Shown in pieces: positions 8,585 to 13,700 of a DNA stretch of 64,000 nucleotides. Position numbers and translations under genes: made by a program. Origin of the DNA: Asterias rubens (lineage: Eukaryota); NCBI RefSeq assembly GCF_902459465.1, contig NW_022985708.1, forward strand, positions 62,001 to 126,000. The letters are read 5' to 3'. Under the pieces are notes generated by a model that saw nothing but the letters and a program-made list of their open reading frames with translations, was not told where the DNA came from and searched no databases. Within the stretch, counting starts at the first letter, position 1. The number at the start of each line of letters is the position of its first letter.

Positions 8585-8830
8585 TTAAATAACAACAATT
8601 GTTGTTTTCCGTTTACACTTTTTATATATATTGTGACAAATGTTGGTGTACATACCGTCTATTTGGTCCTGAAGATTGCTAGTAATCCTGTTGACATGCC
8701 TTCTTCCAAATATCACTATTGCAACAAATATGATTAGTGATATCCCGCCAGTAATTGTTTGCGTCAATGATGTTTCTACAAACGGAGCAAGGCTGTCTGT
8801 GATGCTGTTAGTCTCATTTGTAATTGTTGA
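8585..8830 (-). pseudogene. Small single-TM ORF, paralog a (no in-frame ATG seen)
   Basis: Reads ..TNETNSITDSLAPFVETSLTQTITGGISLIIFVAIVIFGRRHVNRITSNLQDQIDGMY. Minus-strand TATAAAA at 8858-8864. Confidence 0.6.
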
Positions 8831-9095
8831 GTGCGAACGTTTGAAAGTTGTTCTCTCTTTTATAGCTCCGCGTGTGTTATGATTTTGTTATTGTATGGCG
8901 TTTTAAAACTCAAAAAATTCTAACGTACGCGCAATTCTCTCCTGTACGCGCGCTTCACCTTAATACGCGCGCGCTTTAACCCGCCGCTAATTCCAAGTTT
9001 TTTAAATCCGAGTGGGTGCTTTCTTATATATTAAGAAGTTGTGACCGTCGCCGTTGGGACAAAGGCCAGGTTGTTATCTTCTTAATATATTATAA

Positions 9096-9183
9096 GAAAG
9101 GACCACCGCTGCCGTTGGTTTTGGGAGTGGCGTACGCCACCCCACGTACGTGGGCCAAAACCAACGGCAGCGGTGGTCCTTTC
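9096..9183. repeat. T-shaped parvovirus-like terminal hairpin 1
   Basis: Perfect 29-bp stem (9096-9124/9155-9183) enclosing GA, arm GTGGCGTACGCCAC (9127-9140) and arm CCCACGTACGTGGG (9141-9154). Confidence 0.9.
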
Positions 9184-9547
9184 AAACTATTGCGTTGGAA
9201 TGATCAACAGGTTCATTATGTTTTAGAGTATCTGAACTAGTTTTAGGTCCAACAAATTTACTCATAGGCATATGTAATTTATCAGTTAAGAATTCTCTTG
9301 GTTCTTGTTTACTGTTATGACCAAAACTAATATCTTTATCTACTTTAAACCATTTATCTTTAGTAATGGCTTGTGGATTAGTATCAGCAGTCCTTTTATT
9401 AGCCCTTCGAGTAATTTTCTTGTCCCAATTTGGAAAAAATTTTCTATGTTCATTTGTCCAAGTATCCATGCGCTGTTTATTTTCTTCAATCTGTTTCTGT
9501 TTTTTAGTTCTAGTTGCGCAAAGTGTTGGTTGTGTACATCTATCCAT
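9182..9547 (-). CDS. Unassigned 121-aa basic ORF within the viral concatemer
   Basis: ATG-initiated ORF running into hairpin 1; no recognisable motif. Confidence 0.25.
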   Translation of the reverse strand: MDRCTQPTLCATRTKKQKQIEENKQRMDTWTNEHRKFFPNWDKKITRRANKRTADTNPQAITKDKWFKVDKDISFGHNSKQEPREFLTDKLHMPMSKFVGPKTSSDTLKHNEPVDHSNAIV

Positions 9548-10631
9548 TGTTGCTTATCTGCTTCTTTGGCATCTTCCTACAAATCAGAAATTTTCTGATT
9601 ATTGTCTTTAAGTACTTGTGCTTGATCTAATTGCATTGCTTTAATTTGTAATAGTACATCAAATAGTTCTAAAACTATGTAAAAATTCTTCATTCAATTT
9701 TTTTACTACGTTCTTGATAGGCTGTTAATCCCATAGTAGTAAAGAAATCGTCCCAAAAGTTTTTTTTCTGTGTGACAAGTAGAATAATTCACATCCGGGT
9801 ACTTTGCATTTATTCATAGTCACCTTTTTAAATACACCGGTTAGCGCGCCCTCATCGGCCGCAAGACGTCAGAGGGCCACTCTTTCCTTTGACGTCGGAG
9901 ACTGAACATCACATTATTTTCTCCGTCTTTAATTCAGGTAATTACCATTCTATTTTCCATCCATTCTCCCCTAGATTTCATTTAAATTCCTCTTGTATAA
10001 ATTATTCGTAGAGTTTAGGCTATTTTATGACATGTTTCTTTATGACAAGAGAACGGTTTTCTAGAGTTAATTTACTTAGTGTTTAGTCGGGAAAGGAAAC
10101 TCCCCTTATAGATATATTTCTTTTTGATTTGAATTTTCTCAAGTCTCCTCTCTTAGATTTTGTTTCTAGTTTTGCATTACTAGAGATCTAAAGTAATGCC
10201 GTACTTGTTTTCCGATTTAATGATGTAAATATTGCTGATTTTGCGGAGTTATCCTCTAATTTTGGTACAATTCCAAGATGGTGGACGTCATTAAACTTTT
10301 GGCGGGAACTTTAATTATATTATTTAGTTTGCCGTTATTTATGCTTTTCTGTTTGCCATCCATTTCCAATCTTTGGCAAATCGTTTATTATAGATAGTCT
10401 TTATCCAAGTTCACGGATTATTTCATTGATTTGTTTATTCTAAAATACATAATTTCTAGGCTGGAAAACAGCAACACTCTCGCGTCTGTTAAGGATTTCC
10501 TAATTAATTGTAAATAGTATTTGTGACTGTAAGTTTTATTCTAAATGTTTTATTTAAAGTATGTTTATTTAATTACACTCTTTCCTTTGACGTCGGAGAC
10601 TTAACACCACATTATTTTCTCCTTCTTCAAT

Positions 10632-11183
10632 TCAGATATAAATAAAAGTATGGAACAGCGAAGATTGTGTCCCGCAGGATCCTTTATTTAAGCCGATCAC
10701 ATCTGTTTTTGTTAGATCACATTTAGATTGGAAATCAAATGACATTCTATACATATCATATGCTTCTACTTTATGATTAGATTGACTATAAATGTTAATA
10801 TTATGTTTGACTCTTTTTGCTTCTAGTTCTTCAATTGCAGTACCTTGTGCAGTTAACGATGCCAATGTAAATTTATCTTTGTCTAGAAAGCATTGATGTT
10901 TTTTCCTATCTAAATCATAAATTAAAATATGTTTTGTGACTTGTAACATAGCAAAAAATGCAAGTCTACTATTGCAGTCATCGTAACAATCGTTCAGCGT
11001 TAGAAAATCTTTATAATCTTCCCAGTTGTTATAATCGGCAAATTCTTCTTTAGCTTGTATAACCAACGGCGAGAAATCAATATTTAGTTGTCTTTGATTT
11101 CTGACTAACGCTGTTCCGATTTTTCCAAATTCTTTCGCCCACGGTTCCACATCTTCTTCCGTTTTGATAGATCTTTTTGTCAT
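10632..11183 (-). CDS. ORF X (183 aa), unknown protein occupying the NS1 position in unit 2
   Basis: ATG lies ~20 nt after an AAGGTA motif, as do the NS1 ATGs at 12854 and ~13270. No HUH or helicase motifs. Confidence 0.5.
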   Translation of the reverse strand: MTKRSIKTEEDVEPWAKEFGKIGTALVRNQRQLNIDFSPLVIQAKEEFADYNNWEDYKDFLTLNDCYDDCNSRLAFFAMLQVTKHILIYDLDRKKHQCFLDKDKFTLASLTAQGTAIEELEAKRVKHNINIYSQSNHKVEAYDMYRMSFDFQSKCDLTKTDVIGLNKGSCGTQSSLFHTFIYI

Positions 11184-11358
11184 AGTGTTGCCGTACCTTT
11201 AATATATTTTCCTGGTTCTTCTTATAGATTCTTCTTTTTTTATACTTCCGTTCCTTCCAAATTCTCTGATACGTTTTCTTGTACGTCTTTGGCACTTTGT
11301 TCTTTTGATTTCTGTCCTGTTAATAACAATATTGAATACTAAATTTTGTGTAATTCTT

Positions 11359-11940: not shown

Positions 11941-11991
11941 TTGGTTGTGGCCCACGTACGTGGGGGTGGCATACGCCACTACCACAACCAA
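11941..11991. repeat. T-shaped hairpin 2b (left stem truncated)
   Basis: TTGGTTGTGG-CCCACGTACGTGGG-G-GTGGCATACGCCAC-TA-CCACAACCAA. Confidence 0.8.
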
Positions 11992-12077
11992 CGGCAACCT
12001 TTGCACAGCAACGGCGGTGAAATATTCTTAATATATAGAATATAAAAACACGCGCGAAGCTATAATACCTAACCAAA

Positions 12078-12854
12078 CTAACTATTCCTACACGATCCAA
12101 CGACGGCCCACCATAGTATCAAATGTAAGTGTAAGTCTTCTTTGTTGTCTGCTTTTGAGCATGCAGATGGTTCCATATTTACTACACTACTGTACCCTGA
12201 CGTGTCTTCTCTTCTCTTCTTAGTTGCTTGACATACATTTACTGGCCCTTTACCTACAATATTATCAATTCTGCCTGTGTCGAATTCTGGGTCTCCGAAA
12301 CTATCTATGACCAATTCCCAATCTATAGTCGGAACATGTAATGTACAAATATAGCCTATGCTATCTTCTAATCCACTGAGATACTCCCTTGTTGTTCGGA
12401 TTACATCCCCAATACTCTTATCCTCTGATCCTCTACTTATTACCATACCAGTAAATGAATGTTGTGCACATAGTTCTTTTTTGGTTTGATACTCTCTTCC
12501 GAATCTTTCACCACTATAAATTTCCGCCATCTTCAGGCTTCTACTCTCGTATTCAGACAAATACGAAGCCATCCGATCCGAAAACTCATATGGTCCTTCA
12601 TACATTGGCCAATCGCTAACCGATGCCGTTTTACTGACTGTGAATGATGTGTCCCTCTTTACGTTTTCTATCCCTCTGAAGTTGCATCTACTTATTACTG
12701 GCGTTACGCCTTCTATGACCTTTCTTGATAATGATCTACCCTTTAAGTTTGTGGCACTATTCTTATACCATCTACCAGCGATATTCGCCGCTAATACATA
12801 TTTCTTCAAAGTATGTAAATTATCATGACTTGTGTTCCGGAATCCGGTCGCCAT
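12078..12854 (-). pseudogene. NS1: Parvoviral NS1 N-terminal fragment (truncated just after the HUH motif)
   Basis: MATGFRN... to EDLHLHLILW. Colinear with the N-terminal region reconstructed at 16136-16680 (SVSDWP.Y.GP.EFSDRMASYL.EYESR; IDSFGDPEFD.GRI), but a divergent variant. Confidence 0.8.
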
Positions 12855-13011
12855 GTTGTATTGTCTACCTTGTTTTCTTGTGTTGACTTTTTCTCAGACG
12901 GCCGTCTCTCCCAAACACTCGTTTGTTCTGATGTTTGTGTATGATTTCTGAACTTCCTTCTGAGATCTGTCCTGTGTAAATAAAAATAAAGACTCATAAG
13001 TTATTTGTTCT

Positions 13012-13233
13012 TTAAATTACAATAAATTGTTGTTTTTCGTTTACACGTTTTGCTATATTAATCCAAATGTTGGTGTACATACCGTCTATTTGGTCTTGTA
13101 GGTTGCCTGTTATCTTATTGATATGCCTACTTCCGATTATCACTATCGCTATGAATATTACTAGCGATATGCCTCCTGTAATTGTTTGGCTTAAAGATGT
13201 GTCAAACGGAGCTAGGCTGGCCGCAATGTACAT
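13012..13233 (-). CDS. Small single-TM ORF, paralog c (5' end fused to the preceding unit)
   Basis: SLAPFDTSLSQTITGGISLVIFIAIVIIGSRHINKITGNLQDQIDGMY. Confidence 0.6.
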   Translation of the reverse strand: MYIAASLAPFDTSLSQTITGGISLVIFIAIVIIGSRHINKITGNLQDQIDGMYTNIWINIAKRVNEKQQFIVI

Positions 13234-13460
13234 AGGTTATTACTATGACTATTTCTCATTCCGGTGGCCATATTGGCTTTCTACCTTGTCTTCTGAATCT
13301 TCTTTAGTCTCTTGTTCTGTATCTTGTCTTTAGCACCTTCTTCAAACTCCCGTTTCTTGAGAATTCACGTATCTGTTGTACTTCTCGTTGCCTTCCTCTG
13401 AAGGTTTTGTGGATGTCTGTCCTGTGTAAGAAAAATAAAGTTTCATAAGTTATATGTTCT

Positions 13461-13700
13461 TTAAATCACAAAGATTACTCGTTTGTTTTTACACTTTAGA
13501 CATTTCTTTAATAAATTTATCGTGTACGTACTGTCAATTTGTGTTTGTAGGTTGTTAACCAGCCCGTTAACGTGTCATTTACTTAGTACAGCTGCTAGTA
13601 CAAATACTACGAGCGCAATTCCTCCTGAAATTATTTGTGAAATCGTTATGTTAGATGGCAATTCACTACTCAAGTCGATCTGTCCTGTCTGGTTGAACAT
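13461..13700 (-). pseudogene. Small single-TM ORF, paralog d (internal TGA)
   Basis: Manual translation: MFNQTGQIDLSSELPSNITISQIISGGIALVVFVLAAVLSK*HVNGLVNNLQTQIDSTY..; stop at 13575-13577. Absent from the ORF track. Confidence 0.65.

Follow-up and report, generated by a model that had tools for sequence, protein, structure and literature searches.

The 64,000-nt stretch of Asterias rubens DNA analysed here (NCBI RefSeq assembly GCF_902459465.1, contig NW_022985708.1, positions 62,001 to 126,000 of the forward strand; hereafter the window, in whose own numbering all positions are given) holds an endogenous parvovirus-like array, in which genome fragments joined by hairpins carry four related copies (a, b, c and d) of a small gene. 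The analysis supports the reading that this gene encodes a selected, N-glycosylated single-pass membrane protein of type III layout (i.e. without a signal peptide), and it is likely that it is a spliced glycoprotein of this type, whatever its role. As to that role, it is tentatively proposed, at a probability of roughly 0.45, that the product is a non-structural accessory protein which binds PDZ scaffolds at cell junctions and aids virus release or spread.

Layout of the encoded protein and selection on its core

The four related frames lie on the minus strand and end at 8585 (a), 11359 (b), 13012 (c) and 13461 (d). Copies a, c and d align to b at 28-45% identity, with ten invariant residues (among them Q, I, GG, N, QID and Y), so that the four paralogous open reading frames (ORFs) reported by the first-pass annotation, which had been made from the sequence without database searches, do exist. 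Its description of them as the first gene of each unit holds for units a, b and d, which have a hairpin and a TATA-like box 40 nt before the small-gene start position, but not for c, which has lost its own hairpin and promoter (yet still lies upstream of an NS1 start), nor for the large NS1 fragment (16681-14100), whose 5' end is cut so that no small ORF precedes it. As found in the window, the copies are fossils: copy a has no ATG at the position aligned to the starts of d and of a fifth paralog (P0014, see below), while copy c is 5'-truncated and fused near 13218 to the NS1 of unit d (codon 17), its ATG being another frame of the first 17 codons of that NS1.

In all four copies, the best 19-residue hydropathy window scores 1.96-2.35, K and R are absent before the transmembrane (TM) helix and number one to four after it, and no N-terminal signal peptide is predicted. 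An amphipathic 14-mer ending in QID is likewise present in all four (21-161 of 5000 shuffles reach it). The sequence of features proposed initially, i.e. no signal peptide, a hydrophobic TM segment after GG, a basic patch and an amphipathic segment, is thus recovered in hydropathy, charge and shuffle tests. The same applies to the sequons, which had been assigned to the three copies with a native N-terminus: they are found close to the N-terminus in a, b and d, as well as in P0014, and are absent in c, with an N-terminal sequon arising in 5-21% of the shuffled ectodomains of each of a, b, d and P0014. AlphaFold2, run on six rows, gave one long helix (predicted local distance difference test score, pLDDT, of 69, highest in the TM part). 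Pfam and PHROGs matches for the small proteins were absent or below cut-off, a Foldseek search of the b model against viral models gave no matches, and inovirus coat clusters found in the ESM Atlas with b (0.78-0.81; all b matches below 0.9) were rejected as generic helix likeness. The type III layout is supported by dN/dS (the ratio of nonsynonymous to synonymous substitution rates), charge bias, sequons and two further paralogs. The likeness to type III viral membrane proteins that had been suggested therefore stands for the layout, whereas that to NB, FAST proteins and viroporins goes no further than layout, as an acylation motif and a polar pore face are both lacking, and neither the sequence nor the fold gives a match.

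The same membrane protein could also be an oligomeric viroporin, or a lysis factor acting through stress of the endoplasmic reticulum (ER) in the manner of SAT or NB, that kills the cell for virion release. Its size and single helix fit SAT (68 aa, leaky scanning) and the glycosylated NB, and small residues are grouped at the start of the helix. However, the helix after GG is aliphatic (at most one S or T), without a polar pore face, i.e. without any His, charged or amide residue to line a pore. The gene moreover opens an NS-type first cassette, where early lysis would presumably reduce yield, and the ER-stress model leaves the conserved T-x-V/L ends (see below) unexplained, which makes this reading rather unlikely. 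An early host-modulating membrane protein, which would use its helix and tail to block or remove a receptor or an immune sensor, for the purpose of immune evasion or superinfection exclusion, would agree with the observation that the TM segment and the juxtamembrane face are conserved while the ectodomain drifts, as well as with the first position on an early transcript and with a PDZ motif, which generally suits signalling complexes, but no target is known and this reading appears unlikely.

Over a 38-codon core ending at QID, rough dN/dS values of 0.07-0.49 were obtained, all six pairs being below 1 and five of them significant by Fisher's test (P<0.05; 0.054 for c/d), whereas shifted frames lack this pattern. 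The ratio asked for in the first-pass annotation is therefore not near 1. In the 20 codons after G/S-x-Y, by contrast, dN/dS amounts to 0.97 (a/c), 0.94 (a/d) and 0.67 (c/d), with b left out for its shorter tail, and for a/c the contrast between core and tail is reproduced in all 5000 bootstraps. Divergence among the copies is far greater than that of the locus between sequencing runs (<1%), which argues that selection acted in the viruses, before integration, as had been suggested. A host-domesticated family, with paralogs that arose and were selected after integration, is hardly credible for the same reason, synonymous divergence among the copies being near saturation. Domestication would agree with copy b being intact here and almost the same in P0013 and run X3, but viral CpG levels are retained, three of the four copies are broken, and every copy has its own viral hairpin or NS1 context.

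A predicted intron and two putative alternative tails

The 5' splice consensus reads AG/GTRAGT (the slash marking the exon-intron boundary), and it is where this consensus starts, inside 'QIDG', that selection on the core stops. The donor-like sites are G/GTATGT in a and c, G/GCGAGT in b and A/GTACGT in d, all in phase 1; given the residues and local codon usage, the joint chance of donor-compatible codons in all four copies is about 0.001. At 92-111 nt past the donor, each copy has a pyrimidine tract followed by an invariant tandem acceptor (ACAG-GACAG-A). The motif (L/F)x(D/T)QID(G/S)xY, put forward earlier as an amphipathic protein motif, is amphipathic up to QID, but its G/S-x-Y part coincides with the splice-site consensus, and the conservation of that part is therefore probably at the RNA level. 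The unspliced frames had been taken as the product; the evidence instead points to a two-exon gene with conserved C-termini in exon 2.

The predicted exons of b, c and d contain a single ATG beyond the start, compared to a mean of 13.8 in shuffles (none of 10000 as low), and that ATG sits at the premature stop of d. Copy a was left out of this shuffle because it has no downstream main gene; its predicted exons hold two ATG versus about four expected, and the predicted introns of all four copies together six versus 7.3 expected. The depletion in the exons fits a leader that is scanned through to NS1. It would also fit a mainly regulatory role, in which the upstream ORF and its intron adjust the dose of NS1 and the peptide is secondary, and so would the DNA conservation of the 3' splice region (96% between a and c over 50 nt) and the second donor directly before the main ATG. 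Selection at the amino-acid level on the TM segment, sequon and amphipathic helix is unexpected for a mere upstream ORF, however, and this explanation is considered very improbable.

A class I PDZ-binding motif consists of a C-terminal S/T-x-V/I/L. Read from the first AG, the frame ends in T-x-V/L-stop in all four copies (in c out of frame with exon 1), compared to 17 of 398 C-termini in the background, so that the predicted splice would create such a motif at the end of a product of 81-82 aa. The frame from the second AG, five bases on, contains R-x-F-x-R-N/D-G-x-I/L-K/R-K/R and would give a product of 93 aa with a basic tail; in copy b it runs from 11311 to a stop at 11199, with a donor-like AAG/GTA directly after it. 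Over a, b and d, the chance that the bases of T-x-V/L fall at wobble positions of the basic frame is about 0.0004, compared to 0.001 when the test is run in reverse. Each frame thus fixes the wobble positions of the other, and both appear to be coded.

A conserved donor-like AAG/GTA precedes the main ATG by 15-16 nt in b, c and d (11198, 12870 and 13286, minus strand), and may feed the downstream genes. Further donor-like sites (AAG/GT) are found at 8961 in unit a and at 13844 in unit d (minus strand), where they lie upstream of the TATA box, behind GC-rich CGCGCG boxes. Splicing from these sites past the small ORF was not adopted, because b has no counterpart. A second copy of the acceptor motif, ACAGGACAGA, lies at 13679-13688, within the first codons of d.

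Relatives of the small gene

A profile search of 1.84 billion representatives returned seven matches, i.e. copy c itself, a one-residue variant of b, P0014 and four long repetitive proteins, and a search of 5.8 billion returned the same first three. The long repetitive proteins (P0015-P0018, of which only P0018 was inspected) matched on short stretches and were dropped. P0014 is a 60-aa fifth paralog from a 613-nt ENA contig, which aligns with d from residue 1 (52%) and retains the initial M, the sequon, the TM segment and QIDG, with a stop five residues later, as an intronic tail would allow. A further paralog copy, at another place, is found on one contig each in runs X3 and X4 (aligned at window positions 8507-8677 and 13142); it shows mostly synonymous differences near the basic patch and the loss of 1 nt in the post-donor tail, and its exon 2 differs from that of a at the early stop of the latter.

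The 6507-nt RNA contig of the Millport starfish virus, which is probably exogenous and whose NS1 start matches P0009, has at its 5' end an unannotated ORF of 87 codons before NS1. As judged by eye, this ORF has a sequon at residue 7, an uncharged hydrophobic run at residues 32-49, a K/R patch and an acidic tail, and it stops 29 nt before NS1, the ATG of which is closely preceded by a donor-like site, in agreement with b, c and d. With regard to absence from related viruses, which the first-pass annotation had set against its own proposal, a small ORF is thus present before NS1 in terms of position and layout (by eye), while homology is not evident.

Proposed role of the protein

In the preferred reading, the left end of each unit would be the 5' cassette of an unclassified marine parvovirus lineage, consisting of a hairpin, a TATA box and the two-exon small gene, which would occupy the leader of the mRNA for NS1 (or for the unit b main gene) as its first cistron. 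Exon 1 would encode an S/T-rich ectodomain of about 22 residues with a sequon towards the N-terminus, a signal-anchor helix starting from GG, a basic patch and the amphipathic helix, and the protein would insert N-out/C-in without a signal peptide and become N-glycosylated. Removal of a 92-111 nt intron starting within 'QIDG' would then yield either the form with the PDZ-binding end (first AG) or, by the five-base shift, that with the basic tail, while retention of the intron would give a form of 72-80 aa. Since the exons are nearly devoid of other ATG codons, ribosomes that leak past the small gene or reinitiate would reach NS1. The PDZ-tailed isoform would reside at the cell surface and bind junction scaffolds, with the amphipathic helix bending or sensing the membrane, and inner or nuclear membranes are a possible destination of the isoform with the basic tail. 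The outcome would be easier release or cell-to-cell spread, as SAT, MAAP and the adenovirus death protein (ADP) provide for other non-enveloped viruses.

Several points weigh against this reading. The splicing is predicted from sequence. Unspliced tails are open in all four copies (at a chance of 0.09-0.26 each), so that the form with a retained intron may be of importance. A 2-nt difference in exon 2 of c puts the PDZ motif out of frame with exon 1, so that it is no longer reached by the first-AG frame of that copy. Exon 2 is little constrained before the terminal motif, with similar proportions of nonsynonymous (pN) and synonymous (pS) differences in the first-AG frame, and the block of the basic frame with a pS of 0.72 versus a pN of 0.28 was picked after inspection. 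The contrast between core and tail is not significant for a/d (P 0.058) and c/d (P 0.26), and dS is near saturation among the copies, which makes the dN/dS values rough. The Millport ORF has no evident sequence likeness to the array gene, has a different end motif and was not returned by the profile searches, the libraries of which may or may not contain it. Finally, the tie between the small protein and egress is drawn solely by analogy.

Comparison with known systems

The papers cited in this and the next section were available in part, and what is said of them holds for those parts. The known proteins to which the array gene can be compared differ in gene position, in anatomy, or both. Protoparvovirus SAT is a 68-aa single-helix ER protein that is translated by leaky scanning from the VP2 mRNA and aids spread (PMC5744167). 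It resembles the array gene as a short single-helix parvoviral membrane protein, but it overlaps the start of VP2 in another frame on a late mRNA and is resident in the ER (PMC5744167), and it gives no sequence match. The array gene is instead situated after the left hairpin and before NS1, with sequons, and with an intron and a PDZ-type end by prediction. The parvoviral precedent had been placed in the VP region, not upstream of NS. This is correct for SAT, but small ORFs before NS1 are known as well, although not called transmembrane in the text covered: the chaphamaparvovirus MKPV has p10 (9.8 kDa) and p15 ahead of NS1, with a short intron of 88 nt (PMC6999912), and ORF1-Lh is a small ORF of 81 aa in the same position (PMC6631224). 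Like the array gene, these ORFs follow the left terminus and precede NS1, and they involve a short intron, as is predicted for the array gene (PMC6999912, PMC6631224); they differ in belonging to another lineage, in not being described as membrane proteins there, and in giving no search match. The third parvoviral case, MAAP of adeno-associated virus, is an egress factor encoded in cap from a non-AUG start, which binds membranes via its amphipathic C-terminus (PMC11359079). It shares with the predicted product of the array gene its small size, membrane association and basic amphipathic helix, but is not described there with a glycosylated single-pass layout (PMC11359079).

Among DNA viruses, the closest anatomy is that of ADP (E3-11.6K), which has a luminal N-terminus with an N-glycan at Asn3 and is palmitoylated and late (PMC8657697). 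Like the predicted product of the array gene, ADP is a protein of around 10 kDa with many S/T, one helix and a basic cytoplasmic part, and it acts in the release of a nuclear non-enveloped DNA virus; its palmitoylation, late expression, unrelated sequence and lack of an amphipathic helix set it apart (PMC8657697). Influenza B NB (on a bicistronic mRNA with NA) and influenza C CM2 are small glycosylated single-pass proteins, as is predicted for the array gene, but of enveloped RNA viruses, palmitoylated and with reported channel activity (PMC6679168), while the array gene has no conserved Cys.

The FAST proteins deserve separate consideration, since a FAST-like cell-cell fusogen, by which the parvovirus would spread through syncytia, is an explanation in its own right. 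The short ectodomain, the Gly motif at the border of ectodomain and TM segment, the beta-branched helix, the basic cluster with an adjacent amphipathic helix and the position as first ORF of a multi-ORF mRNA (often the first cistron in FAST viruses too) are all shared (PMC7412057). Basic cluster, amphipathic helix and an ectodomain of fewer than 40 residues are found here as well, although the cluster is small, with just one or two basic residues directly after the helix. Against this, all predicted forms (72-93 aa, the spliced ones 81-93 aa) fall short of the 100-200 residues of FAST proteins, and the endodomain of the spliced forms (about 40-50 aa) is at the lower bound of the FAST range of 40-140 residues. 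There is no acylation motif, i.e. no Gly2 myristoylation site in b, d and P0014 and no Cys in the conserved core of five distinct copies, and the ectodomain is polar, with predicted glycosylation, instead of a fusion peptide. Fusion would therefore seem distinctly improbable.

The starfish viruses themselves, i.e. the Millport and Caledonia starfish parvo-like viruses, are described as having one genome with NS1 and VP1 (PMC6085071). Their NS1 is 43-51% identical to that of the array, and Millport is also like the array in the small ORF with sequon, TM segment and basic patch, followed by a donor-like site, before NS1 (by eye; PMC6085071). Millport differs in that its small ORF has an acidic tail, no intron is seen in the RNA contig and homology is not evident, while the array has no recognisable VP. 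A literature search, with subscription journals outside its coverage, did not yield any paper describing a protein with a TM segment or a PDZ motif from a gene upstream of parvoviral NS1, and the parts available of PMC11357303, PMC13426907 and PMC7737747 hold no passage on TM proteins in such viruses. The gene defines a new family of small predicted viral membrane proteins, of a known broad class in an unusual place, with a putative function and an analogue in a probably active virus.

The array, its NS1 genes and unit b

The array extends over ~8.4 kb (about 8450-16826; Table 1), with all fragments read on the minus strand and hairpins between them. It is a real endogenous element of a marine animal, since its junctions are spanned by contigs in runs from other studies, which rules out an assembly artefact: contigs of X1 and X8 span the left host junction, those of X3 span the right one, and contigs from X1, X3, X4 and X8 match parts of the array at 99% or more. 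X1 may itself be the source sample. Read depth over the viral parts is about 144-208 (X1), and the observed/expected CpG ratio is 0.95 inside the array versus 0.52-0.57 in the flanks. All four hairpins that were folded are structured (z -11 to -16), and the hairpin core has three occurrences versus none expected. A host repeat of 931 bp resembling a solo long terminal repeat (LTR), with a depth ~100-fold higher than that of the viral parts, entered the array after integration.

The long ORF at 14637-16340 matches Pfam Parvo_NS1 (E 2e-8) and has three relatives among 2863 candidates (43-51% identity), namely NS1 of the Millport and Caledonia starfish parvo-like viruses and one ENA protein. The HxH motif of the HUH region also aligns in NS1. 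The NS1 proteins of 12078-12854 and 14098-16681 are only about 60-66% identical within one concatemer, which suggests either that the viruses replicated together in a single germline cell or that the locus captured viral DNA repeatedly. Beside a hairpin, an inverted NS1 stretch (14158-14258 versus 16448-16547, 99% identical) resembles the junction of a snap-back defective genome.

In promoter, small gene and second donor-like site, unit b matches the NS1 units, and its leader is complete, while its hairpin stems differ from those of the other units and only the hairpin core is common. Its main ORF has no Pfam or PHROGs family, no relative among 30 candidates (of near lengths only), an ESM Atlas top match with few shared features and a structure model with a pLDDT of 37. 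No VP family was matched by the ORFs scanned, in an array that is fragmentary and with the main gene of unit b being without a family. Given two divergent NS1 and no VP in one concatemer, unit b may be a second segment or a satellite. The segmented densovirus of Acheta domesticus, with separate hairpin-flanked units that share termini, provides a model for a unit with a non-NS1 gene (PMC10267136), although the termini are identical there, compared to a common core only, two divergent NS1 and no VP found here. Viral contigs gave no relative of the locus with NS1, no match with the hairpin core and none among 33 candidates with the TM alignment; of the metagenome contigs, none of 554 (NS1 query) or 259 (TM query) were related. 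It would be a quite improbable extension that the lineage is multipartite or satellite-bearing, with each segment opening with the spliced type III glycoprotein and the PDZ-anchored isoform at junctions driving FAST-like fusion or cell-to-cell passage. If true, a non-enveloped single-stranded DNA virus would have a fusogen-like spread protein whose tail is switched by a five-base acceptor shift.

Outside the array, the window contains a duplicated 6.7-kb block (1-6740 and 49042-55780, 99.85% identity), a recent mobile element or segmental duplication, and host repeats at 60225-63323, 47735-49960, 32791-35760, 28146-31538 and 19613-21152. These include a long ORF with 16-residue tandem repeats, the end of which we take to be tyrosine-recombinase-like, a CACTA-type transposase-like ORF (weak DUF4218 match), DUF6729 and C2H2 ORFs and a tandem array of roughly 200 bp; some of the repeat pieces are presumably LTR-retroelement-like.

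Table 1. Features of the parvovirus-like array, in window positions
Feature	Positions	Strand	Basis or remarks
Endogenous parvovirus-like array, hairpin-joined genome fragments within host repeats	8450-16826	minus	Parvo_NS1 match, depth, bridged junctions, CpG
Copy a, predicted exon 2, cut by host DNA	8450-8544	minus	first-AG frame ends E-T-A-L-stop at 8465; second-AG early stop
Copy a, predicted intron, GT donor, tandem acceptors	8545-8655	minus	exon 2 would start at 8544 or 8539
Copy a, predicted exon 1, start codon lacking; encodes sequon, TM segment, basic patch and amphipathic helix	8656-8824	minus	frame ends at 8585 if unspliced
TATA box 40 nt upstream of copy a start position	8859-8864	minus	sequence
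Terminal hairpin(s) upstream of copy a, T-shaped core	9015-9183		folding, z -13
3' remainder of unit b, including 121-aa ORF 9182-9547 of no known family	9182-9770	minus	Pfam/PHROGs, alignment
Host solo-LTR-like repeat inside unit b main ORF	9771-10701		TG...CA ends, 4-bp target duplication
Unit b main ORF, not NS1, family-less, in NS1 position of units c/d	10702-11183	minus	searches
Copy b, predicted exon 2	11199-11316	minus	G-T-E-V-stop at 11240 in the first-AG frame
Copy b, predicted intron, GC donor, 92 nt	11317-11408	minus	splice consensus
Copy b, unspliced ORF, 72 aa, only intact copy	11359-11577	minus	ORF; predicted exon 1 = 11409-11577
TATA box 40 nt upstream of copy b ATG	11612-11617	minus	sequence
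Terminal hairpin ahead of copy b, with a hairpin core next to it	11812-11996		folding, z -16
NS1 N-terminal 258 codons (unit c), cut by hairpin	12078-12854	minus	alignment
Copy c, predicted exon 2, lacking 2 nt relative to those of a and d	12855-12971	minus	alignment; E-T-A-V-stop at 12894
Copy c, predicted intron, GT donor, 111 nt	12972-13082	minus	splice consensus
Copy c ORF, native part from near 13218	13012-13233	minus	alignment; 13083 is the last base of predicted exon 1
First 17 codons of unit d NS1	13221-13271	minus	alignment
Copy d, predicted exon 2	13272-13421	minus	first-AG ends E-T-G-V-stop at 13342; second-AG basic, stop at 13304
Copy d, predicted intron, GT donor, 110 nt	13422-13531	minus	splice consensus
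Copy d ORF, in-frame stop at codon 42	13461-13700	minus	ORF; predicted exon 1 = 13532-13700
Terminal hairpins upstream of copy d	13896-14092		folding, z -16
Second, divergent NS1 (HUH and SF3 helicase), 5'-truncated, stop and frameshifts	14098-16681	minus	Pfam, alignment
Hairpin and hairpin core where the array meets host DNA on the right	16681-16823		folding and repeat search

Implications

The array records several divergent genomes joined hairpin to hairpin, one of them with an unknown gene replacing NS1, and thereby bears on segmentation and satellites in the Parvoviridae. For a published and probably active starfish virus, an overlooked ORF of fewer than 100 aa is flagged, and the idea can be checked on existing RNA data. 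In the literature covered, the parvoviral membrane accessory proteins SAT and MAAP come from the capsid cassette of vertebrate viruses. If the reading preferred here is true, a glycosylated single-pass protein heading the NS cassette, with an isoform predicted to bind PDZ domains, would represent a new early form of membrane engagement by a small non-enveloped virus.

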